From Blastocatellia bacterium (GTDB lineage Bacteria > Acidobacteriota > Blastocatellia > UBA7656): a stretch of 64,000 nt of DNA. The translations under genes and the position numbers were made by a program. Position 1 is the stretch's first letter. Every line of letters starts with the position of its first letter. Where the stretch lies: contig CAWHTK010000020.1 in assembly GCA_963832205.1 (NCBI GenBank), positions 126,512 to 190,511 of the forward strand, read 5' to 3'. Under the pieces are notes generated by a model. The model ran no database searches and was not told the origin of the DNA. It saw only the letters and a list, made by a program, of their open reading frames with translations. Of the stretch, positions 1,924-38,612 are shown piece by piece.

Positions 1924-2124
1924 TGGTGCTCCCTGGTTTTACTGAAGTTCGCGGCAAATACTTTATTTGTGGCTATGGTTATATCGGACAGAGAAGGTGG
2001 TCCACGTACGTTCCCTGCTGGATAGTAGTATTTTATGGATTATGGGCGAAGCTACAAGTCTTTTTTGTCCAGGTCGGGAGTGGAAACCACCTGGTAAGAC
2101 GCCGAGTGCTCACGAGTGTGCGTG

Positions 2125-3510: not shown

Positions 3511-3579
3511 AGGCAGGCATTAAACAACAGCCGCGCCGCATCGTCAATGCCCCACATTTTCGTATTGAAAGTTGCGCTA

Positions 3580-3987: not shown

Positions 3988-4102
3988 ACGAGTCTCCTCA
4001 ATCATGAGTTGCGCGCGGCCTGGCGAAAGTTGCCTCTTAATAAAACGGGCGGCAGACGGAAGCGCTTCCGCCCGCCGCCCGCGCTTGACATTCGATTGCC
4101 TG

Positions 4103-5964: not shown

Positions 5965-6027
5965 TAGATAGCTTTTAACAGAATACCTGATGCTCGTTCA
6001 ACCTGATTCTTCGATCTTTCGGCGGGC

Positions 6028-6069
6028 AAGATAAAGTTAAAAGAGCGGGGCAGGGACGAGCCCTGCCCG
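6028..6069 (-). terminator. rho-independent terminator downstream of the aminotransferase gene
   Basis: Hairpin gcggggcaggg/ccctgcccgt at 6046..6069, followed on the minus strand by a T-rich tract (tcttttaacttta). Confidence 0.4.
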
Positions 6070-6081
6070 TTTGATGACTCC

Positions 6082-7416
6082 CTATAGAGCCGCGAACGCA
6101 TGGTCGAGCGCCGCGGCGAGTTCATCGATGTCTGACCGGGTCGCGACGAGCGGCGGGCCGAGCCGTATGATGTTGCCGTGGAGACCGCCTTTGCCTATTA
6201 GCACGCCGCGCCGGCGGGTCTCTTCAAATACTCGAAGCACCGACTGCGGGTCGGGCTCTTTTGTCGTACGGTCCTTCACGCACTCGATTGCCTGCATCAA
6301 CCCCATGCCGCGCACGTCGCCGATGACCGCGTATTTTTCTTTCAGCTCTTCGAGCCGGGCTCTCAGATAATCGCCCACGACGCGGGCGTTGCTCGGCAGG
6401 TCGTTCTCTTCTATCACGCGGATGGTCGCGATCGCGGCGGCCGACGTCACCGGGTTCCCGCCGAAGGTCGAAAATGTCAGCGAAGGATATTTATCCGCAA
6501 TTTCCGGCGTTGCCGTCGTGCATCCGATAGGCGCGCCGTTGGCCATGCCCTTTGCGAAGGTCATCACTTCGGGCTCGACATCCCAGTGCTCTATGCCGCA
6601 CCACCGGTCGCCCGTCCGGCCCCACCCCGTCTGCACTTCATCGCAGATGAATATGCCGCCATAACGCCGCACGATCTCAGTAACGACTTTAAAGTAATCC
6701 CTGGGCGGCGTGATGAAGCCGCCGACGCCCATTATTGGCTCGGCAATAAACGCCGCGATCTGTCCCGTGGTCGAAGTTTGGATCAGTTCTTCGACGTCGC
6801 GGGCGCACTCCATCGCGCAGTTATCGGGGGTCGCGCCAAACGGGCAGCGATAACAGTAAGGCGCGTGCGCGTGGACGATGCCCGGCACGAGCGAGGGGCC
6901 GTGCTTCCAGGTCGCGTGACCGGTGGCCGTCATATTCATGACCGAGCGGCCGTGGTAGGCGTAGCGCAGCGCAATGATCTCGGTCCGGCCGGTATATATG
7001 CGGGCGAGCACCATAGCGGTCTCATCCGCCTCGGTCCCGCTGTTGGTAAAGAAGCTCTTCTTGAGGTTTCCGGGCGTGATTTGCGCGAGCTTCTCGGCAA
7101 GCTCGACCTGCGGGCGATTGATATATAGCGTAGAGGTGTGAGCGATTGCGGCCGCCTGCCTGGCCATCGCCTCTACCACTTCGGGTCGGGCATGGCCCAC
7201 GGAAGTCGTGAGCACGCCGCCGAAGCAATCGAGGTAGCGGTTGCCCTCCGCGTCCCAGACGTGCATCCCCTCGCCGCGTTCAAGCACAATCGGGTGCTCG
7301 TAATACGTGGCGACGCAGGGCCACAGGTACTCTTTCTGCTTCTCAATAATTTCAGATATGGCTGGTTCGGGTGTCGCGTTGGGTGCCGTCACTTTGTCCT
7401 CCGATAAAAAAATCAT
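6082..7416 (-). CDS. class-III (omega) aminotransferase, beta-alanine/aminobutyrate-pyruvate type
   Basis: 444 aa, PLP fold type I class-III motifs (FICDEVQTGWGRTG, TFAKG). Closest family is alanine-glyoxylate / beta-alanine-pyruvate aminotransferase. Confidence 0.85.
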   Translation of the reverse strand: MIFLSEDKVTAPNATPEPAISEIIEKQKEYLWPCVATYYEHPIVLERGEGMHVWDAEGNRYLDCFGGVLTTSVGHARPEVVEAMARQAAAIAHTSTLYINRPQVELAEKLAQITPGNLKKSFFTNSGTEADETAMVLARIYTGRTEIIALRYAYHGRSVMNMTATGHATWKHGPSLVPGIVHAHAPYCYRCPFGATPDNCAMECARDVEELIQTSTTGQIAAFIAEPIMGVGGFITPPRDYFKVVTEIVRRYGGIFICDEVQTGWGRTGDRWCGIEHWDVEPEVMTFAKGMANGAPIGCTTATPEIADKYPSLTFSTFGGNPVTSAAAIATIRVIEENDLPSNARVVGDYLRARLEELKEKYAVIGDVRGMGLMQAIECVKDRTTKEPDPQSVLRVFEETRRRGVLIGKGGLHGNIIRLGPPLVATRSDIDELAAALDHAFAAL

Positions 7417-14282: not shown

Positions 14283-14398
14283 CTAGATTTTGGATTTTAG
14301 ATTTTGGATTTTGGATTAGGGAACTTGGTCGGAATCAGCCCGCTGATGTTCCAGGTATCCGGCAATCCAAAATCCAAAATCTAAAATCCAAAATCTAA
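14283..14398. repeat. MITE-like element with ggattttg heptamer arms (R2)
   Basis: agattttggattttagattttggattttggatt ... aatccaaaatccaaaatctaaaatccaaaatct. The core is the reverse complement of the core of the copy at 38499..38612. Confidence 0.7.
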
Positions 14399-14404
14399 AT
14401 TGTT

Positions 14405-18116: not shown

Positions 18117-19949
18117 ATGTCGATCAAGTCGGATCGCTGGATCAAGCGGATGTGCGAAGAGCAAGGGCTCATCGAGCCTTATGAAGAGAAGCTCGTCCGC
18201 AGTATAGAAGATAGGCGAATCATAAGCGCCGGCCTTTCAAGTTACGGCTACGACTGCCGGCTCGCGCGCGACGAGTTCAAGGTCTTTTCGCCGGTTACGG
18301 GGACCGAGATAGACCCGAAGAACTTCGACCCCAACAGCCTGCTCGACGTGCCTATCAGAAATACCGCGGACGGCTCCGAGTACTGGCTGCTTCCGCCGCA
18401 CTCCTACGCGCTCGGCGTCACCATAGAGCGATTCAAGATGCCGCGCAACGTAACCGCCCTCGCCATCGGCAAGTGTGTAACTGGCGATGCGCTCATCTTA
18501 AATCCCGATACGGGCGATCTGATACAGATGCGCGATTACGTCGAGAGGCGTATAACGCGAGCCGCTTCGCTTTCGGGTAACCAGATCGCCAGCGCCCGAG
18601 TCTCCGACCACATACGTAGCGGGATCAAGCCCGTATATCGGTTGACTACTCGGACAGGGCGCAGGGTCAAGCTTACATCCAATCATCCGCTGTTAACGTT
18701 CAACGGCTGGGTTCGCCTCAAAGACCTGGTCCCCGGAGCGAGCAGAGTAGCGGTGCCGCGCTCGCTGCCCTTCTTCGGCAGTAGTGATCTACCAGATCAT
18801 GAGGCAGACATGCTCGGCTTGATGATCTCTGATGGCCAATGCAGCACGCCTGGGCATTCGCCATGTTACACGAGCGCGGACCCGACGTTGGTGGAATACT
18901 TCACGTCCGCGGTTGAGCAGTTCGGATGCTTCGTTCATCCCAAAGGCAACTTTGGATATAGAGTCGTGAACCGGCTCGGCAGAGGGGGGATTATGACAGG
19001 CAACCCCAATCGGATGACGGTCTGGCTGTCCGATATGGGGATAAACGTCGTGTCGAGAGATAAGTTCATCCCCACGCGAGTCTTAACGGCATCACGCGGA
19101 TCTGCCGCCAGGTTCTTGAGGGCACTCTTTTCCGGCGACGGAAGCGTCATGACTCAGGGCAGCCAGGTCGTGATCGAGTACTGCTCCATGTCAGAGCGCC
19201 TGGTGCGTGACGTTCAGCATATGCTTTTGCGCTTCGGCATAATCTCTTCGGTGCGCTCCAAGCAGACAAACTTTGGTACTACGGCGTGGAGGCTGTGGGT
19301 AACGGACAAAGACGCGATAACCATTTTTGCGCGCGAGATAGGTTTAATACCGGGAAGCCAGAAGCAGAAAAAACTGGAAGAAGCGCTGGACATAATTGCC
19401 GCTCATCCGAAGTCGCACACGAACATAGACAGCCTCCCTTCGGATGCGTGGGCGGTCCTGCAGGCGGCTTGCCGTAAGAATAATCGGTCGATGCAGAGCG
19501 TGGGCTTTCACCCGAACCGCAAGCAGGGCGTAAGCCGCGCCCTTGCGGCGCACGTCGGTGTCGAGCTTGAAGAGCCCTCGCTCGTCGGCATAGCTTCGTC
19601 GGACATATTGTGGGACCGCGTTGAGGCAATTGAGTACGTCGGCGAAGAAGAGGTGTACGACCTCGGCATTGCCGCAACGCACAACTTCATAGCCAATGAC
19701 ATCATTGTGCATAATTCAACTTATGCGCGCTGCGGATTGATCGCGAATACGACTCCGCTCGAAGCCGCCTGGTGCGGGCGATTAGTAGTCGAGTTGTATA
19801 ATGCCGCCAACCTGCCGGTGAGGCTTTACGCGGAGGAGGGCTTCATACAGATACTCTTCTTCGAATCGGACGAGGAGTGCAACACGAGCTATAGCGACCG
19901 CGGCGGAAAGTACCAGGACCAGCCCGGCCTCACGCTCGCGAAAGTATGA
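18117..19949 (+). CDS. dcd: dCTP deaminase interrupted in-frame by a 414-aa intein (exteins 119 + 77 aa)
   Basis: N-extein MSIKSDRWIKRMCEEQGLIEPYEE...VTALAIGK and C-extein STYARCGLIANTTPLEAAW...FIQILFFESDE together give about 196 aa of dCTP deaminase. The insertion splits the conserved GK|S-STYARCGL (GRSS-ARLGL) active-site loop. Confidence 0.85.
   Translation: MSIKSDRWIKRMCEEQGLIEPYEEKLVRSIEDRRIISAGLSSYGYDCRLARDEFKVFSPVTGTEIDPKNFDPNSLLDVPIRNTADGSEYWLLPPHSYALGVTIERFKMPRNVTALAIGKCVTGDALILNPDTGDLIQMRDYVERRITRAASLSGNQIASARVSDHIRSGIKPVYRLTTRTGRRVKLTSNHPLLTFNGWVRLKDLVPGASRVAVPRSLPFFGSSDLPDHEADMLGLMISDGQCSTPGHSPCYTSADPTLVEYFTSAVEQFGCFVHPKGNFGYRVVNRLGRGGIMTGNPNRMTVWLSDMGINVVSRDKFIPTRVLTASRGSAARFLRALFSGDGSVMTQGSQVVIEYCSMSERLVRDVQHMLLRFGIISSVRSKQTNFGTTAWRLWVTDKDAITIFAREIGLIPGSQKQKKLEEALDIIAAHPKSHTNIDSLPSDAWAVLQAACRKNNRSMQSVGFHPNRKQGVSRALAAHVGVELEEPSLVGIASSDILWDRVEAIEYVGEEEVYDLGIAATHNFIANDIIVHNSTYARCGLIANTTPLEAAWCGRLVVELYNAANLPVRLYAEEGFIQILFFESDEECNTSYSDRGGKYQDQPGLTLAKV
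18474..19715 (+). mobile_element. intein with LAGLIDADG homing-endonuclease domain inside dcd
   Basis: Begins CVTGDALILNPDTGDL (block A; Cys1 at 18474-18476). Two LAGLIDADG motifs (MLGLMISDGQCS and FLRALFSGDGSV). Ends IIVHN (19701-19715), followed by a Ser +1 residue. Confidence 0.8.
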
Positions 19950-19994
19950 TGCCGGTTGCCCGGTACCAGGAAGATGAAGATAGACTTATGGAGT

Positions 19995-20018
19995 GCTGCG
20001 ACACGCTCGCAGCTTTTT
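19995..20018 (+). terminator. candidate rho-independent terminator after dcd
   Basis: Stem gctgcgacacgctcgcagc followed by TTTTT, 46 nt after the dcd stop. Confidence 0.4.
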
Positions 20019-20177
20019 GAAAGGGTGACTTGTCACCGCACTCCACATCTCCACCTCCAACTCTCTATTTCCCCAATACTAAAACTATTACGTCATTTCA
20101 ACCCGTCTGATGATCTGCTACTATGAGCCGCTGGCTCCCTGTGCTTCCGCGGTTCATCCCATACTGCCCCGAAGGCA

Positions 20178-20795
20178 TTGCCTCGAATGAATGACCGAGA
20201 CGACGCGGAGAAAGCCGCCGCCCCCGAAATACTTAATGATGGCAGTCTCGTCGCCGATTGTCTCAGGGGCGATGAGGCGGCGTGGGAGACTTTGATACTG
20301 CGCTACCGTCGTCTCATATATTCGATCCCCATCAAGCTCGGTTTTTCTCCCATCGACGCGGCGGACATATTTCAAACGGTCTGCCTCAGGCTGTTCGAAC
20401 ACCTCCGCGAGCTGCGCGACGCCGAAAAAGTAAGCTCGTGGCTTATGAGCACAACCACCAGAGAGTGCTACCGGCTGCTCGCCCGCCGCCGCAGAGAAAA
20501 CCAGGTCTCGGTCTATGATGAAGAGCAGGAACGCGAAATCCTCGACCGGCTGGCCTCGGCCGAGCCGCTCGCTGACCAGCAGCGGATCAAATACGAGAAC
20601 GAGCAAATAGTCCGCGAGGGCGTAGCGCGACTTCCCGCGCGTTGCCGCGAGCTGATCGAGCTGCTCTTCTACAGCAAGGACGAGCCGAGTTATGCGGAGA
20701 TCGCGCGCCGCATGAATATTCCGCTCAATTCGCTCGGGCCGATTCGCGCCCGCTGCCTTCAGAAGCTCAAGAAATTCCTCGAAGAAAAACTTTAA
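20178..20795 (+). CDS. ECF (group IV) RNA polymerase sigma-70 factor
   Basis: Region 2 (ILRYRRLIYSIPIKLGFSPIDAADIFQTVCLRLFEHL) and region 4 HTH (EPSYAEIARRMNIPLNSLGPIRARCLQKLKKFL). 205 aa. Confidence 0.85.
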   Translation: MPRMNDRDDAEKAAAPEILNDGSLVADCLRGDEAAWETLILRYRRLIYSIPIKLGFSPIDAADIFQTVCLRLFEHLRELRDAEKVSSWLMSTTTRECYRLLARRRRENQVSVYDEEQEREILDRLASAEPLADQQRIKYENEQIVREGVARLPARCRELIELLFYSKDEPSYAEIARRMNIPLNSLGPIRARCLQKLKKFLEEKL

Positions 20796-20893
20796 CCGCC
20801 TGTACTTTTCTCGCGCCCCGCTGCTCCATTATCCGAACGGCGCGCGGAAGTAGAAGCTCGCGCCGTCACTTCTCCAATTTGAAAGGAGTCCGT

Positions 20894-21901
20894 ATGCGAA
20901 AATCCATCGCCGCACTTTTTGCGCTTGTGCTACTCCTTTCTCCCCATACGCATGTGTTAATAACCGATGCCCAGGCCGCGACTCGCGCCAAGGGCGTCAT
21001 CCGAAATGTCGATGTCGAAGCAAAGACCGTCACGCTCGTCGTGCGGCGCGACGGCACTAACCTCGTCCTTCAAACCGACGACCAGACTCGCATAACCCGC
21101 AACGGCGACCCCGCGAGGCTTTCAGACCTCCAGCAGGGCGACACTGCAGTGGCGGTCTTTGATCGCGAAACGCTTCTTGCCTCGCGCATAGACGCGAGGG
21201 GCGATGAGCGCCAGCAGCTTGCCCGCATAGAAGGCACGATCAGCGCGGTTGACACGGCCGCGCGCACGCTCACTATCGTTCCTTTGCGCGACGGCCGCCC
21301 CGTGACGCTGGGCGTCACCGACAGCACCGCCATCACGCTCGACGGCCGCCCCGCGCGGTTAGACGACCTTGCCCGCGGGTTTACCGCCGGCGCCTCCTAC
21401 GATCCGCGGAGCCTCGCGGCCGTGCGCGTCAACGCTGAATCGTTCGCCGAAGTGCGCGGCGTCGTGCGCGATGTGGGCGTCGCCAACCATACTTTGACCA
21501 TCGGCCTCGGCGGCGACCGAAGCCTTACGCTTTCCGTGCCCGACGGCACGCCCATCTCCCTCAACGGCCGGCCCGCCGATCTCGAAGACCTCAGGCGCGG
21601 GTTCCACGTCGTGGCGAGCTATGTCGAAAGCAGCCTCACGGCCGTTCGCATAGCCGCGACTTCGCTCGCCGAAGTCACAGGCAACATACGGCGCGTCGAC
21701 ACCGCGGCCGGGATTGTTGTGATCTCGCCGCTAATCGGCGGCGACGCGGTAGAGCTTCACGTCACTGAAGCGACGCGCATAAGCGTCGGCGGCGAGCCCG
21801 CAAGGCTCGAAGAGCTTCAGCCGGGCATGGCCGCGCAGGCCGTGTTTAACATCGCATCGCACGAGGCGCAGTCCATAACGGCCCGCGCGCAGAGGCGATA
21901 G
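20894..21901 (+). CDS. secreted protein made of four tandem repeats of about 45 aa (unknown domain)
   Basis: aaaggag RBS plus ATG at 20894. Signal peptide MRKSIAALFALVLLLSPHTHV. Repeats TVTLVVRRDGTNLVLQTDDQTRITRNGDPARLSDLQQGD / TLTIVPLRDGRPVTLGVTDSTAITLDGRPARLDDLARGF / TLTIGLGGDRSLTLSVPDGTPISLNGRPADLEDLRRGF / VVISPLIGGDAVELHVTEATRISVGGEPARLEELQPGM. The ORF-track N-terminus overlapping the sigma gene is rejected. Confidence 0.6.
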   Translation: MRKSIAALFALVLLLSPHTHVLITDAQAATRAKGVIRNVDVEAKTVTLVVRRDGTNLVLQTDDQTRITRNGDPARLSDLQQGDTAVAVFDRETLLASRIDARGDERQQLARIEGTISAVDTAARTLTIVPLRDGRPVTLGVTDSTAITLDGRPARLDDLARGFTAGASYDPRSLAAVRVNAESFAEVRGVVRDVGVANHTLTIGLGGDRSLTLSVPDGTPISLNGRPADLEDLRRGFHVVASYVESSLTAVRIAATSLAEVTGNIRRVDTAAGIVVISPLIGGDAVELHVTEATRISVGGEPARLEELQPGMAAQAVFNIASHEAQSITARAQRR

Positions 21902-21909
21902 AAGCCCGT

Positions 21910-22010
21910 AGCGAGCTTCGAAGGGGCGGCAGAGGGTGCAGGCGCGGCGAGGGGAGACGCGGCGGCGCACCACTACTCGGCTGTTATCTGTCGCCCCTTC
22001 GAAGCTCGCT
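21910..22010 (+). repeat. perfect 19-bp inverted repeat with a 63-nt loop directly after the repeat-protein stop (structured terminator/attenuator candidate)
   Basis: agcgagcttcgaaggggcg (21910-21928) and cgccccttcgaagctcgct (21992-22010) are exact reverse complements. The first arm starts 9 nt after the TAG stop. Confidence 0.45.
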
Positions 22011-22297
22011 TTAAATCTCTATCCCCATCCGCAAACAGGTGGGAGAATGGTGGTCTGAAAGGCTATTCACAAAAAGTCTGTGAGAAGGCCTGATGTCGGT
22101 AGCCCCGGAGGGGCGAGATGTTTATAGGAAGAGATCGATGTACATTTCGAGCTCCGTCAGGAGCGGTATGTTTACATTCCGCCCCTACGGGGCTCAGGGA
22201 TTTTCAGCACCGTGTCTTCTATAAATATTTCGTCCCTACGGGACTCTTACTCTCACATTTTTTGTGCAACGCCGGTCTGAAAAGGTGATATGAACCG

Positions 22298-25163
22298 GTG
22301 AGCAGAAAGCTGGCAGACTCCTTGATGAAGGCCCGAAGCGCCGACGCGTTCTTTCGCGAGCGGCGCGGCACGCTTTCGTGGAATATGTTTGCCTCGCTTA
22401 AGGCCGAGATGGATCGCCTCGTCCACACGGACCTAAACCGCGCCCGCCGCCTTGCCGACCGCATCGAGCGACTGGCCTTGCTCTCAAGCGACCCGATAGC
22501 CCGCGCGTTCGCCGACGCCTCGCGCGCCAGATTACTGCACCTGTTAGGCAATCACGGCGAGGCCAATATACTTTACGCGAAATCAATCGCGACGCTCATC
22601 GAGTCGCGGCTCGCCCGGCAGGCCGCCATCATTCAGAAGCAGCAGGTTAACGCGCTCACACACCTCGGCCGTTATCGCGAGGCGCTCCAGGCGGCGCGCT
22701 CTGCCCGCCGCGCGCTCGCGCCGTCCGAGCCGCTTCACCTGGCGCAGCTTGAGGCGAACGTCGGAAACGTCTATTACCTGCTGGACAGATACGAGAAGGC
22801 GCTGAGTCATTACGATCGCGCAAGAACCGGGCTTGCCGCGCACGGCGATGCGCGGTCGCGCGCGCTGCTCGACCTCAGCCGGGCAAATATCCTTGCCGAG
22901 CTAGACCGGCCCGAAGAGGCCATCGCGCTCTACGCGGAGGCGGCCCGCACGTCCGCGCGCGCCGGTCAGTCACTTATCGCGGCGCTCGCGAGTTACTACA
23001 CAGCCTATATTCATTTTCTGCGCGGCCGGTACAACACCGCGCTTCAATCCTATAATGACGCGCGCGACCGGCTCTCGGCTCTCGGCAGCGTTCATTATGT
23101 TGCCTGGTGCGACCTTGAGATCGCCGAGGTGCTCTTCGCCTTAAACTCGTTCGACGATGCGATGGAGAGCGCCGAGCAGGCGCGCGCGCGTTTTGTCGAG
23201 CTTCGGATGCCTTATGAAACGGCGAGGTCGCTGATGACTATAGCGCTCGCGGCGATGGGCCTCGGGCAATTCGAGCGGGCGCGCGATTATTTGAGCGAGG
23301 CCCGCTCGGTCTTTGCAGCCGATAAGAATAAGACTTTCGCCGCGCTCGCCGACTCTTATCTGGCGGAGCTTGCGATCAGGCGCGGCGATGCGGTAGAAGG
23401 CGCGCGGAGAGCCGAGGCGGCCCTGCGCGCGTTTCGGAGCAGAAATCTCGCGACCCGGTCCGCCTACGCGCTGATGCTGACGGCGCGCGCGGCTTACCTG
23501 TCGGGCGAGCGCGCGAAGGCCCACCGCCGGGCGCGCTCCGCGCTCAGATCAATCGAGACGCACTACGCCCCATCAGTGAACTACATGGCGGAACACCTTT
23601 TGGGAAAAGTAGAGCGCGACCGGGGGCGGCACGGTCGGGCCATCGAGCACTTCCGCCGCGCGGTCGAGACCATCGAGCAGATGCGCGGCGCGGTCACGGC
23701 CGACGACCTGAGATCCGCCTTTTTGCGCGACAAGGTTGAAGTCTATGAAGACGCCGTGAGCGCGTGCCTCGACGAAGGGGGCGCGTCGTCCATTGAAGAA
23801 GCATTCCGTCTGGTCGAATCGGCCAAATCTCGCGCGCTCGCCGACCTGCTCGCGCGTTACCTGCGCGACTCTTCCGTCCCGCGCGTGCGCGGCAAGGGCG
23901 GCCAGAAGAGGCGCGCGCAACTTCTCGACCTGATCGAGGACCTGAACTGGTACAGCTCGCACGCAAGTCTGAGCGAAGAGAAGGCGAGTCAGCGCCACGC
24001 GGCCCCGGCAACCTCGACGCGCGAATCGGAGCGCGTCGAGCGGCGCATCGCAAAACTTTTCCGGCGAATAGAATCGGAAGGGGATCGCGCGGATGATTTG
24101 CATGGGAGGCCGCCCATCAGCGAGCCCGAGCTGTGCGCTTCGCTTGGCGTCGAAGAGACGGTGGTCGAATACTTCGTAACGGGAGACGAGGTGTCGGCCT
24201 TCGTGACTTCGCGCGAAGGGACGAAGCTGGCGCGGAATATCGCCTCCAAACGCGAGGTCGAAGGTATGCTTTCCGCGCTCCGCTTCCAGCTCGAAAAATT
24301 TAACTACGGGCGCGAGTATGCGGACGAGAATTTCGAGCAGTTGAACGGCGCGGTCAATCATCACCTCGCGCTCTTATACCAGGCGATCTTTGCCGGGCCG
24401 CGAGCGATGATCAAGACCGAAAAGCTCATCGTCATACCACACGGCGCTTTGCACTACGTCCCGTTCCACGCGCTGATAAATCGCTATGGCTACCTCGTCG
24501 ATCAATTTGAGATCTCCTACGCGCCCAGCGCGACCGTGCTCGGCATGTGCCGCGAGCGATCGCGGACCTCGAACCTCAAATCTCGAATCTCAAATCTCTC
24601 GACTCGTATGGTCGCGCTTGGGGTAGGGGACCGGGCCGCGCCGAACATAAAAGAGGAGGTCCGCGCGCTCGGCAATCTCTTCCCGAACTCTTCGACGTTC
24701 ACCGGCAGCGCGGCCACGCGCGCTAATCTTATGAAGCACGCCCCGCGCGCCCGGTTTCTCCATCTCGCGTCGCACGGGTATTTTCGCCGCGATAACCCTA
24801 TGTTCTCTTTTCTCAAGCTCGCCGATTCGAGGATAGATTTTTACAGCCTTATGGATTTGAAGCTCACGGCTGAGATGGTGACGCTGTCGGCGTGTCACAC
24901 CGGGGTCAACATGGTATTTCCCGGAGACGAGCTTCACGGGCTCGTGCGTGGGTTTCTGCACGCGGGCGCGCCCTCGCTTGTGGCGAGCCTGTGGGCCGCG
25001 AGCGACATCTCGACGGCTGAGTTCATGAAAGAGATGTATGCCGGGATACGCGCGGGCTCGTCGAAGCGCGAGAGCCTGCGCGCCGCTCAGACTCGCCATC
25101 AAAGAGGAGTATGGACATCCATACTACTGGGCGCCATTTATACTCATGGGCAGCCCCGACTGA
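22298..25163 (+). CDS. TPR-repeat protein with C-terminal CHAT (caspase-like) protease domain; the 3' end is re-framed
   Basis: GTG start with aaaaggtga RBS. About 500 aa of TPR-like helices. The CHAT domain (LVIIPHGALHYVPFHAL...FLHLASHGYF...LSACHTG) has an intact His/Cys dyad. The ORF-track end (..AAQTRHQRGVWTSILLG.. to 25201) is a 1-nt frame error. The alternative frame gives the canonical CHAT terminus IKEEYGHPYYWAPFILMGSPD*, with its stop at 25161-25163. Confidence 0.8.
24568..24606. repeat. short in-frame remnant resembling the tttgaaat MITE family, inside the CHAT gene linker (R4)
   Basis: ctcgaacctcaaatctcgaatctcaaatctctcgactcg encodes SRTSNLKSRISNLSTR between the TPR and CHAT domains. 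It resembles the reverse complement of the selA element (cctcatttcaaatctcgactcctgcc). Confidence 0.3.
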
Positions 25164-25197
25164 GCCTCCGCGATAGATTATTTATGAGGTCACCTGT

Positions 25198-27195
25198 ATG
25201 AAGAGACTACTCTCCTCAATCTTGTTGATGATCCTCTTTGTCGTCGCCTGCTTCACGCCGGGGCCCGTGGCTACAGCGCGGGCCGAGTCCGCGCGCGAGT
25301 TTCACAAGGGCGAAGTCGTCGTCGAGATAAAACCGGAGGCGACGATAGAGGCGGTCAACGCGCGCCGAGGCACGACGACTATCGAGCGAATATACGGCAC
25401 GAACTTTTACCGGCTGCGCACGCCGAAGGGAAAGAAGGAGAAGAAGTGGCGTAAGCGGCTCGCGTCGGACCCGGACGTTTTGAGCGCGTCGCTCAACCCG
25501 ATCATCACTTATCCTAGCCTGTTTGCTCGCGCGACCGTGAGCTTTCCGGACGGCTACGCGAAACCGGGATTTTCGGCGGGCGACTTTCGCTCGCAGCAAG
25601 AGCTGTTTGATATGCTCGGCCTTGAAGCGATTGGCGACCGCTCGCGTGGCGCGGGCGTCGTCGTGGCCATCATCGACACGGGAGTAGACACCGGCCACCC
25701 GATGATCGCCTCGCGGCTGTGGAGTGACTCCCGCGCCGAAGCGGACCTGGAAGCAGACGGCGCAGATAACGACCACGACGGCTTGATTGACGACGGGCGC
25801 GGGTGGGACTTTGTTGATAACGACAACGACCCGTCGGAAGTGCCGGGCGACCCGCGGACGACTGTGGCCGGGCACGGCACCTTTATCGCGGGATTAATCA
25901 GCCTGCTCGCGCCGGAGTGCCGCATTCTTCCGGTGCGAGCTTTTCCGCCCGACGGAGTGACCGACGCATTCACGGTCGCCGCGGCGGTCAAGTATGCGGC
26001 AGATCACGGCGCGAATGTTATCAACCTGAGCCTCGGCTCTCCCGTCTCGCTCGACCTGCTCCACGGCGCGATTCGGGATGCGCGCGAGCGAGGCATAACG
26101 GTCGTCGCCGCGGTGGGCAACGACAACAGCGAAGGCACCGCTCAATTCCCATCAAGCCTGAGCGAGGTCATGGCGGTCGCGGCAATCGACCTTTCGGACC
26201 ACAAGGCGGCCTTCTCGAATTTCGGTCAGCACGTCGATGTGTGCGCGCCGGGCGTGCGTCTGATCAGCGCTTATCCCGGCGGCGAAAGCTTCGCCGAGTG
26301 GAGCGGAACTAGTTTTGCCGCGCCGCTTGCCGCTGCCTCGGCCGCGCTCGTCGTGTCGGCCGACCCGCGTGCTGCCGACGTGAAAGAGATAATCGAAGCG
26401 ACCGCCATCAACATTGACGATCTTAATCCGGGTCTCGCCGGTAAACTCGGCCGCGGTCGCATAGACCCGCTCGGCGCGCTACGGCTACTCAATACTGGCG
26501 AGCGGATCGCATCCGATTTCCACGCCGTGGTGGATATGCTGCGCGCGCCCGCGGTCGCCGACGCGACGGGCCGCGCGAGCGTGAACGTCGCGGGCGATAT
26601 GCAGGATTTTACTCTCGATGCCCAGAGATTGCGTCCGCACGCGAGCTACCGGCTCATAGTCGACGGCTTTGAGGTGGTGAGCGCCGCGCGGGCGACGAGC
26701 CTGGGGAGCTTGAGGCTGTCCTTTTCAAATAATCCGGGAAGGCTCTCGCTGCCCGCTCCGCTCAACCCGGTGACCGGTATAAGACAAGTTGAGCTGCGTG
26801 ATGAGCTGGGGCGATTGGTTTTGCATGGCAGCTTTTCGGAGGGGGACCAGCCTCCCGCCAGGGTGCTTGAAAGGGAAGCGCGGCTGGGCTCGACCGGAGC
26901 GCTGACCGGGGCGGGCGGACGCGCGATTGCAAAGGCCGAACCGGCGCGCGAATCGATCATGATACTGGCAGAAGGATTGCCCGCGGGCGCAAGCTTCCGC
27001 GTATCGGTTGACGGGTTGATGATAGGAATCTTTGCGGCGAGGTCGGGCTTTGTCCGCGCGCACCTTACAAGCGACGGCTCAAGCGGACTTCTCTTGCCTG
27101 GCGCGTTGCGGCCCGTAGTTAATGTAAGGCTCGTAGAGGTGCAGGACGCGCGGGGGCAGGTCGTGTTGAGGGGGGAGTTCTCGCCCGCCCGCTGA
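25198..27195 (+). CDS. secreted S8 (subtilisin-family) serine peptidase with propeptide and a duplicated C-terminal domain of about 90 aa
   Basis: Signal peptide MKRLLSSILLMILFVVACF. Catalytic triad motifs AIIDTGVDTGHP (Asp), VAGHGTFIAGLI (His), GTSFAAPLAAASAALV (Ser). Two C-terminal repeats (..ASYRLIVDGFEV..LNPVTGIRQVELRDELGRLVLHGSFSEG / ..ASFRVSVDGLMIG..LRPVVNVRLVEVQDARGQVVLRGEFSP). Confidence 0.85.
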   Translation: MKRLLSSILLMILFVVACFTPGPVATARAESAREFHKGEVVVEIKPEATIEAVNARRGTTTIERIYGTNFYRLRTPKGKKEKKWRKRLASDPDVLSASLNPIITYPSLFARATVSFPDGYAKPGFSAGDFRSQQELFDMLGLEAIGDRSRGAGVVVAIIDTGVDTGHPMIASRLWSDSRAEADLEADGADNDHDGLIDDGRGWDFVDNDNDPSEVPGDPRTTVAGHGTFIAGLISLLAPECRILPVRAFPPDGVTDAFTVAAAVKYAADHGANVINLSLGSPVSLDLLHGAIRDARERGITVVAAVGNDNSEGTAQFPSSLSEVMAVAAIDLSDHKAAFSNFGQHVDVCAPGVRLISAYPGGESFAEWSGTSFAAPLAAASAALVVSADPRAADVKEIIEATAINIDDLNPGLAGKLGRGRIDPLGALRLLNTGERIASDFHAVVDMLRAPAVADATGRASVNVAGDMQDFTLDAQRLRPHASYRLIVDGFEVVSAARATSLGSLRLSFSNNPGRLSLPAPLNPVTGIRQVELRDELGRLVLHGSFSEGDQPPARVLEREARLGSTGALTGAGGRAIAKAEPARESIMILAEGLPAGASFRVSVDGLMIGIFAARSGFVRAHLTSDGSSGLLLPGALRPVVNVRLVEVQDARGQVVLRGEFSPAR

Positions 27196-27639
27196 TCAAT
27201 CCGACGAGCGGCCGGTGCTTCCGAAACCGCCCTCGCCGCGCGTCGTTTCTTCGAGGTCCTCGACTTTGACGAGCATTGCCTCCTCGACTCTGTATAAAAC
27301 AAGTTGAGCGATGCGGTCGCCGCGACGGACGGCGAACGGCTCGACGCGATCCGTATTGAGCATTATCACGCTGATCTCGCCGCGATAGCCCGAATCGATC
27401 AAGCCGGGCGAGTTGACGCATTGAATGCCGTGACGCGCGGCTATGCCGCTTCGTATAAGCACGAGCCCCGCATATCCGCGCGGTATCGCCACGGCCACGC
27501 CGGTCGGGACGGTCGCGCGCTCGCCCGGGTCGAGCACAAGGTCTATGCGGCTCGGCAAATCGAGCCCGGCGTCCCCTTCGTGCTGATAGCGCGGTGTCGC
27601 GAGGCCCGCGTCAAGCATCTTGATCTTCAGCTCTATCAT
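27196..27639 (-). CDS. dut: dUTP diphosphatase
   Basis: GDAGLDLPS...GLVLIRSGIAARHGI...NSPGLIDSGYRGEI are the dUTPase motifs. 147 aa. Its stop is adjacent to the S8 stop (convergent). Confidence 0.9.
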   Translation of the reverse strand: MIELKIKMLDAGLATPRYQHEGDAGLDLPSRIDLVLDPGERATVPTGVAVAIPRGYAGLVLIRSGIAARHGIQCVNSPGLIDSGYRGEISVIMLNTDRVEPFAVRRGDRIAQLVLYRVEEAMLVKVEDLEETTRGEGGFGSTGRSSD

Positions 27640-28130
27640 CTTTTTCTCACGAGCAGCTTGAATGTGAAACCGTACTGGTTCCTATCGTCGGCCTCTACCC
27701 GCAAAGATTCTTTCTCTTCCCATTCGCCAAGGTCCAGCTCGGGGAAGAACGTATCCGCCTCGACCTGTGCGTCAACCTCAGTCAAATATATGCGGTCCGT
27801 GGCCGCGAGCGCCCGCGCGTAAATTTGAGCGCCGCCGATAATAAACGCTTCGCTGTCGCCGCGGCCCTCAGCGAGCTCGATAGCTGATTCGACTGAATGG
27901 GCAATAAGACAACCTTCGGGGCTGTACTCCTGATCGCGCGTGACGACGATCATATCTCTTCCGGGGAGCGGCCGGCCGATTGATTCAAACGTTTTTCTGC
28001 CGGCTATGAGGTGGTGGCCCATGGTAAGTTCTCGGAACCTTTTCATGTCGGACGAGAGCCGCCAGGGCAGGCGGTTATCTTTGCCTATCCCGCGACGCCG
28101 GTCCATCGCGACGATTATGGATACGATCAA
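27636..28130 (-). CDS. folA: dihydrofolate reductase
   Basis: [52 protein letters not shown]...[16 protein letters not shown]. The proposed TTG start overlaps the thyA stop (TTGA). The ATG at 28104 is an alternative. The ORF-track Arg-rich 130-aa N-terminus is rejected. Confidence 0.8.
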
Positions 28131-29037: not shown

Positions 29038-30835
29038 TTAGAATCTGATCGCCTGATAGCGGGCGCTTCGCTCGCCGGTCGTCTGGTTGAAGATAGTGAT
29101 TGAGACTTCCTCGCCCTTCGGGAACGCCTTCTTTATAGGCTTCTTGCCGGGGCTGACAATAAGTCGCGTCATCGTGCCGTTGGACAGCTCGTAAGTGACG
29201 TCGTACTCGGTCCCGGCGAGCGGCTTGCCGTTGACTTCGACTATCGAAGATCCGTTAAGAAACCCGTAGCCTTCGATGGTCACTTTCTTCTTGCTGATCT
29301 GGGCGCGGACCACCGTCGGGGCGGCGCGGCGGGACCATCTGGTTGGTGACCGCGTTGTAGGCGTTGGCGCGGCCCGAGCTTAATACCATGTTGAGCGCCG
29401 CCGGGGTCGGCTCGGCCGTTGAAATGATCCGCTGTTTTACAGCCGCGGGCGAAAGCGACCCGTCGAGCGAATAGACGAGCACTGCTATGCCGGAGACGAA
29501 GGGCGCGGCCATCGAGGTTCCCTGCCGCTGGCCATAATCGCCCGGAACCGTACTCAATATCTCCACGCCGGGGGCCGCCACGCTGACCCTCGTGTGGCCG
29601 TAATTGGAGAAGTCCGCGAGGCTATCGGCCGCGTTCAGCGCGGCGACCGAGATGACGTTCGACAACTCGCTGCTCCACGACCCTGGAAAGCTTGGCGTCT
29701 CGTCGACGAACTCGCCTTCGTTGCCGGCCGAGGCCACAAACAGGATGCCGGCTTCGCCCGCCCTGACTATGGCTTCGCGCAGGGTGATCGAGTTGCCGGG
29801 CCCGCCCCAACTCGCGTTTATAACGTGAAGGTTTACCCCGCGGTTCTTCAGGGCTATCGCGTAATCAATGGCCTTTATCGCATTGGCGGTCGAGCCGCTG
29901 CCGTTGCTCCCTGTAAGAAACTTCAGCGATACCATCTTTACGTTCCACGCCACTCCGACCACGCCCCTGTTGTTGTTGCCCGCCGCGCCTATGATGCCGG
30001 CGACGTGCGTGGCGTGGGTATCGAAGGTCGGGTTTACGAATACGTCGTTATTGTTGTCGGCGAAGTTCCAGCCGTTGATGTCGTCAACATACCCGTTGCC
30101 GTCGTCATCGTTATTGTTGCCCGCGATCTCTCCGGGGTTGACCCAGATGTTCGGCGCGAGGTCCGGGTGCGAAACATCGATTCCCGTGTCTATGATACCA
30201 ACGACTATGTCGTCCGAGCCGGTGGTTATGTCCCATGCGCGTGTCGCGTCAACGTCGGGCCTTGAATAATCGCTGCTACAGCCGTTGCAGCCTGTGTTAC
30301 GAAGCCCCCACATCTGACTGAAGTGCTCGTCATTCGGCGTGGTGTCGCTTGTATAGAAAGAGTAGTTCGGCTCGGCGTACTCGACGCGCGGATCAAGCTG
30401 GGCGCGCCGCACGGCCTCTTCAACCGTCATCTTGCCGCCGAGGCGCACGAGTTGCGCGCCGCGCGGATGCTCGGTAAGCGACTCGACCCCCTGGCCCCCG
30501 GCGCGCAGTATCTGTTCGGGTATCTGCGCCAGGTCAGGGATGTCGGCCACATCCTCTCTCAGCTTTATGATTACTTCGCCGTCAACGTACGGCCGTCGGT
30601 TTTTTTGAGATTCTTGAGAATAGGCGCCCCGTTGCGGAATAAAGACAACGGCGCTCAGGATTATAGATAAACAGGCGGCCAGAAACTTTTTCATCCGATT
30701 ACCTCGATTGTGCGACTGTGGCAAAAGTTTCGAGCCCAAGTCGCGGCGACACTCTAGAATATAGATTAGCCTTACAGTTAATGAGAGACGCTTTAGATTA
30801 TAGTTCCAGGCCGCCCGCGTAATCAATGATCGCAA
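29038..30835 (-). CDS. secreted S8 serine peptidase with propeptide and a C-terminal domain in a second frame (frame disruption near 29300-29320)
   Basis: ORF 29255..30835 has VGIIDTGIDVSHPDL, HATHVAGIIGAAGNN, GTSMAAPFVSGIAVLV. After NAYNAVTNQMV it turns into junk (PPRRPDGG..). ORF 29038..29313 (extended upstream to ..AAPTVVRAQISKKKVTIEGYGF..) supplies a C-terminal beta domain. The break sits in a ccgccgcgccgcccc tract. Confidence 0.8.
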
Positions 30836-33979: not shown

Positions 33980-36963
33980 ATGAGGAGACTCAAAAAACTA
34001 TCCGCTATTGCTCTAGCCGCGGTAATGATGCTTTCGACCGTTTCGCTTGCCCAGACGCAAATCACTACCGGCGTCATACAGGGCACGATTTCGGACGAAA
34101 CAGGGGCCGTCGTGGTCGACGCGGACATCGAAGTGAAGAACATCGATACGAACTTTACCAGGAGCCTGAAGAGCGATTCGGACGGGCGCTTTGTCTTTCT
34201 GCAATTGTCTTCGGGCCGATACCAGCTGACGGTCTCCAAACAGGGGTTCGCGACGCTGGTGCAGGAGAACCTTCAACTGACGGTCGGCCAGGCCATCTCT
34301 TTGAACCTTTCGATGAAGGTTTCGCAGGTGGCCGAGCGCATAACGATCTCCGCCGCGCCGACCATCGACACCGCCAAGACCGAATCAAGCTCTACGATAA
34401 ACGAGCTGTCTGTGAGCGAGACGCCGATACTTGGGAGGAAGTTCGAAGACCTGCTTTCGCTCACTCCGGGGGTGAGCATCGTGCAAGGCCCTGACGGCGA
34501 CGAGATAAACTTCGCGGGCCAGCGCGGCATCTTCAATAACATCAGCCTCGACGGCGGCGATTACAATAACGGATTCTTTGGCGAGCAGTCCGGCGGGCAG
34601 CGCTCTTCAATAGACATCACGCTCGATGCGGTAAAAGAGTTTCAGGTAGTCGCAACGGGCGCGAGCGCGGAGTTCGGGCGCACCGCGGGCGGCGTCGTTA
34701 ACGTCATCACAAAATCGGGCACAAACGAAATCCACGGCAGCCTCTTCCACTTTCAGAGGCTCGAGGCGCTGACCGCCAACACCAGCGACGGCAAGCCGCT
34801 CGAGGATTTTCATCGCGAGCAGTTCGGCGGCACCATCGGCGGCCCCATCAAGAGGGACAAGATGTTCTACTTCTTCGCCCTCGAACATATAAGAGAAAAC
34901 CTGACGCGGCCAAACCTGAGCGAGCCGATAGGGACGCCTTGCTCGCAGTCGAGCCCGAACATACGCAACCACGAATCGCTCATCGACGGCAGCGCCGACT
35001 GCCAGCGGCTGGCGCTGCTCGAGTTTCTTCAGGACGACTTTGAACCAGGAAGAGGGTCTGCCGATAGAGCACCCCATACGCAACACGGCGTTTCTTGCGA
35101 AGTATGACTGGAACGTTTCGGCGGCAAACAAGCTCAGCCTGTCATACAATTTCGTTCACTCGCGTAACGAGAACCAGACCTTTGACGTGGCCACCTACGG
35201 CAATTCCGCCAACGGCACCGAAGGGCCTGCGAAGATACAGGCGCTCAACGTAAATTTCTTTAGCACGATTTCACCGAGCATACTAAACGAAGCGCACTTC
35301 ACCTACGCTCGCGAAAACCGCCCGCGCGCCTCGGTCGAGTCGAACGTCGGGCCCGACACGGCCATGGGTTTTGTGACGACATTCCGTTTCGGCGACCCGT
35401 TCTTCCTTCAGCCGGGGGTCAACGAGCTGTTCTGGCGCACGCAGATTCGCGATAGCGTCTCGATACTTTCGGGCCGGCATACGATCAAGCTCGGCGGTGA
35501 GTGGATGCACAGCCGCAACGTGCAGATCTTCCGCGGATTCTTCAAGAGCCGTTATATATTCGACAGCGTGACAGGCTTTCTGCGTTACGCGTCGCCCGCT
35601 TCTTTCGGCGCGGGCTTCGGGCCTAACGCGGGCCGCTGCCCGAACGGCTCCTGGACAAACCTGAACTCGCCCAGTTGCGCGGGCGCGACGACTCCGCTTC
35701 TTCTCTTTTTGCAGAGCGCCGGCCGCACAGGTCCGGCGACCGACGCCGCGGGCTTTTCCGACATCGACAATGAAGACTACGGAGCCTTTATTCAGGATAA
35801 GTGGCAGGTGCGCCCGAATTTCACGTTCAACGCGGGTCTGAGGTGGGAGGCGCAGATATTCCCCGACCCCGTCGTGCCGCCCTCCGAGACCGCTTATGGA
35901 AAATTCCTCGGCGACCCGCGCTTCCCGTCCGACGGCACGCTGCCAAGTCAGAAGAAGATGTTTCAGCCCCGCCTCGGCTTCGCCTGGGACATCGGCAACA
36001 ACGGCAAGTCGGTGCTTCGCGGGAGCTGGGGAATATATAACGCGCGGCAGAACATGCTCACCCAGGTCGGGTCGATAACGACCAACGGCGTGCAGCAGCA
36101 GACCATCGCCGGCGGGCTGTTCGCCAACCCCACGGTGCGACCCACGTGGCCGAACCTCGCCCCGATCCCCGTTCTGCCCGAGGGTCAATTCCCCCTCTTT
36201 AGCGGCGTGCGCGTGTTCAGCCGCGATTACGCGAATCCGCGCATCTATACGACCAACGTCGCATTACGAGCAGGAGCTTGCTCCGAACTGGGCGATCTAT
36301 CTCGATTTCACTCATTCGAAAGGCGTGCATCTGACGAGATTCGTCAACGCGAATTTCTTCGGCGCGTTCTCGCCCGACCTGGGCGAAGTCATGACCGCTC
36401 AAAGCTCGGCCAAATCGCTTTATCGCGGATTCACCATCGGCGTTCGCAAGCGCTTTTCAAGCGGGTTCCAGATGGAAGGCAATTACGTATGGTCGAAAGA
36501 CCTGGATGATGATTCGAACGAGCGCGACCCGTTTACCGACCGCGTGTTCGATCACACGGACTTCTCGAAAGACTATTCGCTTTCCGACCGCGACATCCGC
36601 CACAAGTTCAACTTCTTCACCTACTCGGAGCTTCCCTGGGCATTTCAGTTGGGCACTCGCATTCAGGCCCGCTCGGCGCAACCTATTACGCCGAACCCGC
36701 GCGTGGTTAATGGAGTTGACCTCGGGCGCAACAGCCTCCGCAAAGATAACAAGTTCTTCTCGTTCGACTGGCGACTGTCGCGCAGGTTCCGCCTCGGCGA
36801 GCGAATGGCGATCTCGCCGGTCTTCGAGATGTTCAACACGTTTAACAACGATAACAACGTCAACCCGCTAATATCTCCGGGGCTGTTGAATTTCGACGGC
36901 TTCCTCAGGTTCGGCGTCGGAGACCCACGGCAGGTTCAGTTGGCGGTGAAGCTCACGTTCTAA
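33980..36963 (+). CDS. TonB-dependent receptor-like outer-membrane protein with N-terminal CarboxypepD_reg domain; read in three frames (disruptions near 35050 and 36260)
   Basis: Signal peptide MRRLKKLSAIALAAVMMLSTVSLAQ. CarboxypepD_reg segment GVIQGTISDETGAVVVDADIEVKNIDTNFTRSLKSDSDGRFVFLQLSSGRYQLTV. Plug-like region. ORFs 35040..36509 and 36325..36963 continue the beta-barrel and end in ..QVQLAVKLTF* (C-terminal aromatic residue). Confidence 0.75.
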
Positions 36964-38498: not shown

Positions 38499-38612
38499 TT
38501 GGATTTTGGATTTCGGATTTTAGATTTTGGATTGCCGGACACCTGGAAAGTCAGCGGGCTGAATTCAGCCCTGTTCCCGGAATCCAAAATCCAAAATCTA
38601 AAATCCAAAATG
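38499..38612. repeat. MITE-like element with ggattttg heptamer arms (R5), filling the whole intergenic gap
   Basis: ttggattttggatttcggattttagattttggatt gccggacacctggaaagtcagcgggctgaattcagccctgttcccgg aatccaaaatccaaaatctaaaatccaaaat. Lies between the Nramp start codon (38498) and the DUF1330 stop (38615). Confidence 0.7.

Follow-up and report, generated by a model that had tools for sequence, protein, structure and literature searches.

The 64,000-nt stretch of DNA from a Blastocatellia bacterium analyzed here (hereafter designated the window) encodes a module composed of a sigma factor of the extracytoplasmic function (ECF) type, a secreted repeat protein (REP), a TPR-CHAT caspase-like protease and a secreted S8 subtilase. 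We propose that this module represents a protease-gated sigma/anti-sigma switch, which controls a secreted protease and is not devoted to phage defense, a reading to which we assign a probability of about 50%. It is built on gene content, conservation, domain identities, predicted localization and conserved motifs, from which we infer every protein-protein step. The first-pass annotation of this DNA had considered proteolytic signaling, which is indeed the most likely kind of function, next to an abortive-infection-type cascade, which is weighed below. As judged from comparison of the loci, the full module comprises five genes, coding for the ECF sigma factor, a zinc anti-sigma (ZAS) protein, the TPR-CHAT protein, the secreted S8 subtilase and, in one subfamily, REP.

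Relatives of the CHAT protein were collected by a pattern scan using one genome per species, which returned 160 relatives, with 80 loci being kept. All kept loci derive from Acidobacteriota-type metagenome-assembled genomes. Identity to the CHAT protein of the window amounts to 51-64% in Blastocatellia and to 31-39% in Terriglobia, Bryobacterales, Solibacter and Thermoanaerobaculia-type genomes. The association of the genes, initially noticed in the window only, is conserved: a same-strand gene for an ECF sigma factor lies upstream of CHAT in 68 of the 72 assessable loci, and a same-strand S8 gene follows CHAT in 74 of 76. In classes other than Blastocatellia, CHAT even overlaps or is translationally coupled with the sigma gene, as in locus L067, where the sigma stop and the CHAT start meet at position 9992. 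The data support the view that the genes form a conserved functional module throughout the Acidobacteriota. Several genomes hold two or three modules, and since paralogues residing in the same genome are only 48-66% identical, we regard the duplications as old. The pairwise-identity matrices of four proteins correlate with each other (r 0.51-0.73, Mantel p 0.0005, 42 Blastocatellia modules), demonstrating inheritance and duplication of the module as a unit.

The ZAS component is encoded in the relatives by a gene for ~205 aa, which in Blastocatellia separates CHAT from the preceding sigma (or REP) gene and in the other classes is placed between CHAT and S8, giving the two module orders sigma-ZAS-CHAT-S8 and sigma-CHAT-ZAS-S8. 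Nearly all loci whose flanking sequence is long enough contain it, the exceptions being locus L021 and the window, where a tblastn search over the 64 kb found nothing below E 0.39. The first-pass annotation, which described four genes, had overlooked this fifth component, a zf-HC2 anti-sigma factor that is near-universal in the relatives and deleted here. At the N-terminus of the protein, an H-x4-C-x2-C motif is invariant or nearly so, with H28, C33 and C36 being invariant in 38 sequences. Profile searches matched two solved anti-sigma domains, that of RsiW (E 2.4e-5) and that of DdvA (E 1.8e-3), and a scan for hydrophobic segments detected none. These three features lead us to regard the ~205-aa protein as a soluble ZAS-type anti-sigma factor; its identity rests on sequence and profile evidence, and binding and inhibition of sigma are predicted. 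In some sources the protein is named 'zf-HC2 domain protein' or 'anti-sigma factor RsiW', and PF13490 is precomputed for several members. Foldseek returned no significant match for the structural model, leaving the sequence-profile search as the informative one, and tblastn of ZAS against plasmids yielded zero matches. The C-terminus forms a CarboxypepD_reg-like beta-sandwich. It is connected to the helical domain by a linker, FDS..P..AG.R, which has the lowest AlphaFold2 (AF2) confidence (residues 97-107) and contains the invariant residues P98, G102 and R104. An invariant motif within a linker predicted to be flexible is what a protease or docking site would be expected to look like.

The TPR-CHAT gene of the window extends from 22298 to 25201 on the + strand and encodes 967 aa as assembled. 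Its CHAT domain (PF12770, E 8.9e-51) is preceded by ~465-500 aa of TPR-like helices, agreeing with the ~500 aa of TPR repeats reported by the first-pass annotation; in the AF2 model, ~465 aa of confidently predicted TPR-like helices are followed by a helical linker and the CHAT domain. The His/Cys dyad noted at the same time withstands proper alignment: His826 (HLASHGYF) and Cys866 (LSACHTG) are invariant among 23 sequences, i.e. the window protein and 22 relatives, and conform to the dyad of CHAT-family clan CD proteases. The mean confidence of the model (pLDDT) is 76.6, dropping below 50 in the frame-shifted tail formed by residues 936-967, and its top Foldseek matches are separase and DdvA. 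No transmembrane (TM) segment could be detected (maximum KD19 1.18), and the protein is predicted to be cytoplasmic.

The sigma factor (20187..20795, + strand, 202 aa) contains Sigma70_r2 (E 1.9e-12) and Sigma70_r4 (E 1.9e-5) as its sole domains. It scores 83.2 bits on the ECF model TIGR02937 (sigma70-ECF; cut-off 42.9) and has the two-domain composition and the size (202-205 aa) of a group IV ECF sigma factor. A scan for hydrophobic segments found none. ATG 20187 is most likely the start codon rather than TTG 20178, which is the mechanical start of the open reading frame (ORF), and a public protein collection carries the protein in the 202-aa form. An expectation-maximization (EM) search over the upstream regions of ~40 Blastocatellia modules revealed a sigmaA-type motif, which in the window covers positions 20096..20124 (+ strand) and consists of TTTCAA (20096-20101), a 17-nt spacer and TGc-TACTAT (20119-20124). 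The EM search replaced an earlier count of bipartite k-mers in 300-nt upstream regions, which was confounded by conserved coding sequence; applied to the non-Blastocatellia loci, the EM search itself picked coding sequence, namely that of an SBP_bac_5 gene. We also considered this motif as an ECF promoter and rejected the idea, as TTTCAA-17-TACTAT with a TG extension has a non-ECF geometry. The conserved motif thus suggests that sigma is transcribed from a housekeeping-type promoter.

A different element is found behind the sigma gene. In the window, the bipartite motif tGTACTTTT-N14-CTCCAT (GTACTTTT...CTCCAT; 20801..20830, + strand) begins 6 nt past the sigma stop codon and ~60 nt ahead of the next start codon. 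The corresponding motif tGTATTTTT-N14-CTCTAy occurs within 150 nt past the sigma stop and with constant spacing in 40 of 47 Blastocatellia modules, and near-matches are present in 4 of the remaining 7. Elsewhere, counting both strands of 3.03 Mb, the pattern occurs 19 times. The site in the window scores 23.3 bits, compared to 12.7 bits for the runner-up within the 64 kb. The motif is dissimilar to the sigmaA promoter, and its variants track the sigma clades, making it a candidate target promoter of the module's own sigma factor. One sigma clade has a further copy of the motif (GTACCTTT-N14-CTCTTA), located on the opposite strand ~100 nt upstream of sigma (L031 8574-8601, L032 8585, L021 9187 and L016 908, all on the - strand). 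A tRNA-Glu(UUC) gene lies ~315-335 nt beyond this copy in three of the four loci (L021, L031, L032).

The S8 subtilase (25198..27195, + strand, 665 aa) possesses a signal peptide, a fervidolysin-type N-prodomain and a Peptidase_S8 domain (PF00082, E 1.5e-44) with the subtilase triad in the order D-H-S (D160 in DTG, H226 in HGT, S372 in GTS). Its C-terminus contains two ~110-aa repeats (38/96 identical residues, z 17.8), in keeping with the secreted protease with a duplicated C-terminal domain that had been described before. The module S8 carries a signal peptide in every class examined. Predicted localization thus separates the components: REP and S8 have signal peptides, while sigma, ZAS and CHAT lack TM segments. 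A complete ABC transporter of the Opp/Dpp type, made up of a pair of ATPases, a pair of permeases and an SBP_bac_5 binding protein, is encoded directly upstream on the same strand in 15 non-Blastocatellia loci; no Opp genes adjoin the module in Blastocatellia loci or in the window. The secreted protease and the adjacency of Opp genes suggest that the physiological theme is the use of extracellular protein or peptides. The window encodes four S8 subtilases within its 64 kb (25198-27195, 29255-30835, 50185-52563 and 52794-55967), one of them with a PA domain, which is consistent with a protein-degrading lifestyle.

REP (20894..21901, + strand, 335 aa) is an accessory component, which 15 of 71 related modules possess. 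As already recognized in the first-pass annotation, it is a secreted protein with four repeats; these measure ~75 aa each, resemble DUF5666/CusF domains and are 41-51% identical (z 12-24), following a signal peptide. The window protein itself has only a sub-threshold match to CusF_Ec (22.1 bits; cut-off 27), and many homologues with 50-60% identity carry PF18914 and/or PF11604. The number of repeats in the homologues varies from 4 to ~7. We also considered that the longer ORF 20642-21901 codes for a membrane anti-sigma factor with a cytoplasmic N-terminal domain, a TM segment and periplasmic repeats. This was rejected because the extension is of low complexity and overlaps sigma out of frame, and because the relatives as well as the public protein begin at the signal peptide.

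In the mechanism that we consider most likely, sigma would be made constitutively from the housekeeping-type promoter and kept inactive by the soluble ZAS protein. The TPR array would read a signal and thereby activate the CHAT protease, which would in turn remove the anti-sigma factor, probably through a cut in the disordered ...FDS..P..AG.R... linker, by analogy with Csx29/Csx30/CASP-sigma and with the model for DdvA. The liberated sigma factor might then read GTATTTTT-N14-CTCTAy just past its own gene and raise expression of REP, the anti-sigma factor, CHAT and the subtilase. Several points weigh against this scheme. Correlated divergence of the components follows from co-inheritance alone and is no proof of interaction. 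The substrate of CHAT could be sigma, CHAT itself or something else. The second motif copy present in one sigma clade points away from sigma, toward the tRNA-Glu region. In the REP subfamily, CHAT is preceded by a sigmaA-like extended -10 element (TGGTATTAA), so CHAT and S8 may be expressed independently of the module's sigma factor. The model also leaves unexplained why a secreted protease is so tightly tied to cytoplasmic parts, and it cannot operate as stated in the window, because this copy lacks the anti-sigma gene.

The window copy is atypical in three respects: the anti-sigma gene is cleanly absent, a miniature inverted-repeat transposable element (MITE)-like insert resides in the leader of CHAT, and 25 codons from the end of CHAT its reading frame is disrupted. 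The first two are concentrated in the gap between REP and CHAT (21902-22297), which occupies the exact place of the anti-sigma gene in the syntenic relative L001. The first-pass annotation had seen here a structured leader of 396 nt; length and propensity to fold (z -7.9 relative to shuffled sequences) are as claimed, but the gap is not a single leader and consists of a conserved hairpin and an inserted palindrome. The hairpin (21910..22010, + strand; ~100 nt with 24-nt arms) emerged from comparison with orthologues, where it is located between the anti-sigma gene and CHAT, and it is kept just upstream of CHAT in six orthologous loci. That it directly follows the REP stop codon in the window results from the missing anti-sigma gene. 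RNAalifold, run on 7 orthologous loci, predicts 37 pairs, compensatory changes being seen in 10, and there are G-U pairs on the + strand. No Rfam family matches the hairpin at 21910-22010, and a U-tract is absent. The second element (22052..22282, + strand) looks like a MITE insertion: a 213-nt palindrome (22061-22273) with imperfect terminal inverted repeats lies between two copies of the 9-bp direct repeat GGTCTGAAA (22052-22060 and 22274-22282). One related partial copy lies in an intergenic region of L007 (7491-7587), and the orthologous leader of L001 is devoid of the element. Given the sigmaA-type promoter in front of sigma, the non-sigmaA motif behind it and the hairpin and MITE-like element ahead of CHAT, the four genes probably do not form one simple transcription unit.

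The third peculiarity is a +1 frameshift, which had escaped the first-pass annotation; its reading silently switched frame at this point. An extra A at 25091 shifts the last ~25 codons of CHAT, and as a consequence the ORF in the assembly extends as far as 25201, overlapping the beginning of S8 with its ATG by 4 nt. Without this nucleotide, the protein has 954 aa, a stop codon at 25161-25163 and the C-terminus ...AQLAIKEEYGHPYYWAPFILMGSPD*, matching the family consensus; the conserved C-terminal segment HPYYWAPF is thus encoded in the window, albeit in the other frame past 25091. The 34-nt spacing of CHAT and S8 reported earlier is accordingly correct when the extra A is removed and incorrect for the sequence as assembled. 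The public protein collection, which includes sigma, REP and S8 of the same 266-kb contig and no CHAT protein with more than 64% identity to that of the window, has no entry for the 967-aa ORF; this absence fits annotation as a pseudogene. At least three genes in the window are split, namely CHAT, a second subtilase and a TonB-dependent receptor, which suggests that the assembly is indel-prone, and the CHAT frameshift may therefore be an assembly error. The second subtilase gene (29038-30835, - strand), located downstream of thyA, has a frameshift near 29320, with its C-terminal ~95 aa in ORF 29038-29313; the L001 orthologue aligns first in frame -1 and then in frame -2. The TonB-dependent-receptor-like protein (33980-36509, + strand; CarboxypepD_reg, Plug, OMP_b-brl_4) is distributed over two overlapping ORFs (33980-35107 and 35040-36509), and its barrel match stops at position 540 of the 838 positions of the model. 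Deletion of the anti-sigma gene and the MITE-like insertion are not sequencing artefacts of this kind. For the sigma factor of the window, there are three alternatives: it is unrestrained, a paralogous module controls it in trans, or it belongs to a decaying copy.

The CHAT gene contains yet another feature that could affect its reading frame. A heptanucleotide tract, (RAAYCTC)x4, at 24571..24598 (+ strand) encodes the disordered linker SNLKSRISNLS, and 3-4 heptamers are present at the same site in 7 other loci (L007, L009, L013, L014, L042, L047, L056), in the forms (RAAYCTC)x4 or (AAATCTC/AAATTTG)3-4. Among 11 heptamer tracts in 1.5 Mb, 8 are at this single linker site. Since 7 is not a multiple of 3, slippage within the tract would shift the frame, and phase variation of CHAT is possible. 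An A-rich 17-mer, AAAATCCAAAATCTAAA, which is similar to this tract, is present in three copies in the window (14369-14400, 38586-38602), two of which are arranged in tandem at 14369 and 14383.

The module is flanked by housekeeping genes. ORF calls and Pfam matches agree with the earlier description of four co-oriented + strand genes between dcd, encoding dCTP deaminase, and the convergent dut-folA-thyA genes. dcd (18117-19949, + strand) forms the upstream boundary and is split off by a terminator-like hairpin at 19995..20013 (+ strand; GCTGCGA-CACGC-TCGCAGC followed by the T-run TTTTTGAAAG). Apart from this terminator, a simple scan for sigma-70 promoters and terminators remained at background level, and an Rfam search of 19900-27700 (E up to 1) gave zero matches. 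The nearest relative, L001/L081 (64% identity for CHAT, 81% for dut and 79% for thyA), shares the gene order of the window, i.e. AMP-binding enzyme, dcd, module, dut, folA, thyA, second subtilase and Band_7. The module is therefore not simply "wedged into" a dTTP-synthesis locus, as first thought; its position next to these genes is inherited and not the result of a recent insertion. L001/L081 differs from the window by the presence of the anti-sigma gene, by an intein-free dcd and by three additional genes ahead of the module. In the window, dcd harbors an intein of ~410 aa that includes a homing endonuclease of the LAGLIDADG type (Intein_splicing E 1.1e-24, LAGLIDADG_3 E 1.4e-20), and the syntenic dcd of L001/L081 encodes 196 aa. 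The three additional genes (1802-6943, - strand) lie between dcd and the module in opposite orientation; one encodes a second TPR-CHAT protein of 1203 aa and is flanked by genes for 203 and 286 aa without Pfam match. Many Blastocatellia modules without REP have a second, distant ECF sigma gene (~21% identity) directly upstream of the module sigma (L007 7835-8407, L083 7878-8450) and a GH127-like gene downstream of S8.

The first-pass annotation had raised a role in anti-phage defense or abortive infection, in which CHAT would sense infection and a cascade through the subtilase would kill or arrest the cell. Pairs of TPR-CHAT proteins and ECF sigma factors do act in defense in Craspase and DdvA/DdvS, a cascade from CHAT to a second protease exists in a type III-B system, and the module evolves faster than its housekeeping neighbors (59-64% versus 79-93% identity to L001). 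However, PADLOC assigned to the four proteins no more than the generic labels 'TPR' (E 8.7e-7) and 'subtilase' and weak IetS matches (E at least 2e-5, over 25-40 residues). There are no cas genes nearby and no CRISPR-like repeat array within the 64 kb, the Csx29 model is matched far below its cut-off (58.9 versus 300 bits), and the neighbors are genes of pyrimidine and dTTP metabolism, Band_7 and the like. In contrast to patchy defense islands, the module is phylum-wide, multi-copy, syntenic and vertically inherited, and since S8 is secreted in all classes, a cytoplasmic CHAT protease cannot reach the exported enzyme. We thus consider a defense function very improbable. A peptide-sensing loop with S8 on the input side has somewhat more in its favor. 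Imported peptides are ligands of the TPR domains in RRNPP receptors, and Phr peptides of Bacillus are matured by proteases of the subtilisin type. In an outside-in circuit of this type, the subtilase would generate peptides from environmental protein or from REP, Opp would import them, the TPR array would bind them in RRNPP fashion, CHAT would cleave ZAS at the AG.R linker, and sigma would be freed, each paralogue being tuned to a different cue. The complete Opp/Dpp-type transporters upstream of 15 non-Blastocatellia modules and the constant localization of S8 (secreted) and TPR-CHAT (cytoplasmic) would fit; yet in Blastocatellia, including the window, the module has no adjoining Opp genes, and the linkage is equally well explained if protease and transporter simply belong to the regulon. 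We regard both the loop and the complete circuit as rather unlikely. If true, the circuit would amount to a caspase-gated sigma switch that senses peptides and has no relation to immunity.

Sigma and ZAS could also form a pair controlled by redox state or zinc, with CHAT, S8 and REP being a co-transcribed regulon or unrelated, and with CHAT not acting on ZAS. The anti-sigma factor carries the HxxxCxxC zinc motif of ZAS proteins, some of which respond to thiol oxidation, as discussed for zinc anti-sigma domains (ZASDs; PMC11506125), and the candidate promoter lies upstream of ZAS-CHAT-S8. Nevertheless, CHAT adjoins sigma/ZAS in two different gene orders and is coupled to or overlaps sigma in other classes, as in L067, an arrangement typical of a cognate regulator and not of a target. 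A redox- or zinc-controlled pair of this kind appears rather unlikely to us. Compatible with the explanation at the family level is the view that the window copy is a decaying remnant without current regulatory function. This would account for the loss of ZAS, which nearly all relatives retain, for the +1 frameshift at 25091, for the MITE-like insert with its target-site duplication in the leader and for the missing CHAT entry in the public protein set. Against it stand the intact sigma, REP and S8 genes and promoter motifs, the two other split genes of the window, which suggest that the frameshift may be an assembly error, and a second module without ZAS, L021 (9335-12838; sigma stop 9919, bipartite motif 9936, CHAT start 10001), in which CHAT is intact. 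Decay of the window copy is unlikely in our view, if less so than the two preceding alternatives. For the family, the protease-gated sigma/anti-sigma switch is the reading that we prefer.

The first-pass annotation held that a pairing of CHAT with a subtilase and an ECF sigma factor had not been described, which is incorrect on two counts. ECF54 sigma factors have been proposed to be regulated by proteases, on the grounds that their conserved gene neighbors include those for carboxypeptidase(-regulatory), subtilase and CHAT proteins (PMC8999054). In addition, coupling of TPR-CHAT proteins to ECF sigma factors has been studied experimentally in Craspase, where Csx29 cleaves Csx30 and thereby relieves inhibition of an ECF-type sigma factor (PMC10028731), and in DdvA/DdvS, where a zinc anti-sigma domain is fused to a TPR-CHAT part that is proposed to start its own removal (PMC11506125). 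The gene set has hence been noted in sigma-factor classification, and control of ECF sigma factors by TPR-CHAT is known from two immune systems. A literature search found no paper describing or testing the Acidobacteriota module family. What our analysis adds is the candidate target promoter, the linkage to Opp, the great age of the multiple module copies, the unusual condition of the window copy and the recognition of the 'carboxypeptidase-like' neighbor as a putative soluble ZAS protein with an invariant linker. For the window itself this means a known kind of gene neighborhood in a copy without the anti-sigma gene, whose apparent CHAT pseudogene may be an assembly artefact.

One of the closest parallels is the ECF54 context as summarized in PMC8999054 (Huang et al. 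2015; Casas-Pastor et al. 2021), whose gene set is the same as that of the full Acidobacteriota module and in which, likewise, the ECF sigma factor has no classical membrane anti-sigma factor. The likeness concerns gene context: CarboxypepD_reg/zf-HC2, S8 and CHAT genes are present in the family, the first of them being absent from the window. ECF54 was defined in Actinobacteria, whereas our family belongs to the Acidobacteriota, and Casas-Pastor et al. (2021) list among the ECF54 neighbors a 4Fe-4S protein, which was not seen in the Acidobacteriota modules. Moreover, the equivalent of its 'carboxypeptidase' is recognized here as a zf-HC2 anti-sigma factor, so an anti-sigma factor would exist after all. 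With DdvS/DdvA of Myxococcus xanthus (PDB 8rot, 8rw5, 8rlz) the similarity extends to the proteins, as the ZAS profile matches the N-terminal domain and the CHAT model the periplasmic domain of DdvA. However, DdvA is a single polypeptide consisting of a ZASD, a TM helix and a periplasmic TPR-CHAT part, while ZAS and TPR-CHAT of the module are separate proteins, predicted to be soluble and cytoplasmic; the CHAT protein of the window begins directly with TPR-like helices and has no TM segment. DdvA is also a dimer in which three CHAT helices are missing, depends on RseP and governs a CBASS/CRISPR island, whereas the module has no defense genes and always has S8 attached.

In Craspase (type III-E: Cas7-11, Csx29, Csx30, Csx31, CASP-sigma), the TPR-CHAT protease acts in the cytoplasm, where it relieves inhibition of an ECF-type sigma factor by cleaving the soluble inhibitor, as we propose for the module, but activation of Csx29 depends on RNA-bound Cas7-11 and Csx30 does not belong to the ZAS proteins. 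The window contains neither Cas7-11 nor CRISPR, its TPR array is much longer, and the Csx29 model NF041237 covers the CHAT part only, at 58.9 bits against the cut-off of 300. The type III-B SAVED-CHAT/PCaspase system of Haliangium ochraceum likewise combines genes for a CHAT protease and another protease with a sigma factor gene; there the second protease is a cytoplasmic caspase activated by CHAT cleavage, in contrast to the Sec-exported subtilase of the module, which is also devoid of SAVED and of cyclic oligoadenylate signaling. Separase, a eukaryotic CHAT-clan protease with helical repeats followed by a CHAT caspase-like domain, is the best overall structural match (Foldseek E 1.5e-13), although identity to the TPR-CHAT protein of the window is ~11%, TM-scores are low (0.25-0.35) and its biology is unrelated.

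Acidobacteriota are an abundant phylum in soil and hard to study. The family reported here would offer a simple soluble three-protein system (sigma, ZAS, TPR-CHAT) with a predicted cleavage linker and a predicted target promoter, and for this reason the idea that CHAT cleaves the anti-sigma factor is directly testable in vitro or in E. coli. CHAT proteases controlling ECF sigma factors have so far been known from immune systems, Craspase and DdvA, and the natural trigger or the physiological output is unclear in both. Taken together, the module family would place the same CHAT/ECF-sigma logic in a non-defense setting that is vertically inherited, multi-copy and tied to secreted proteases and peptide uptake.

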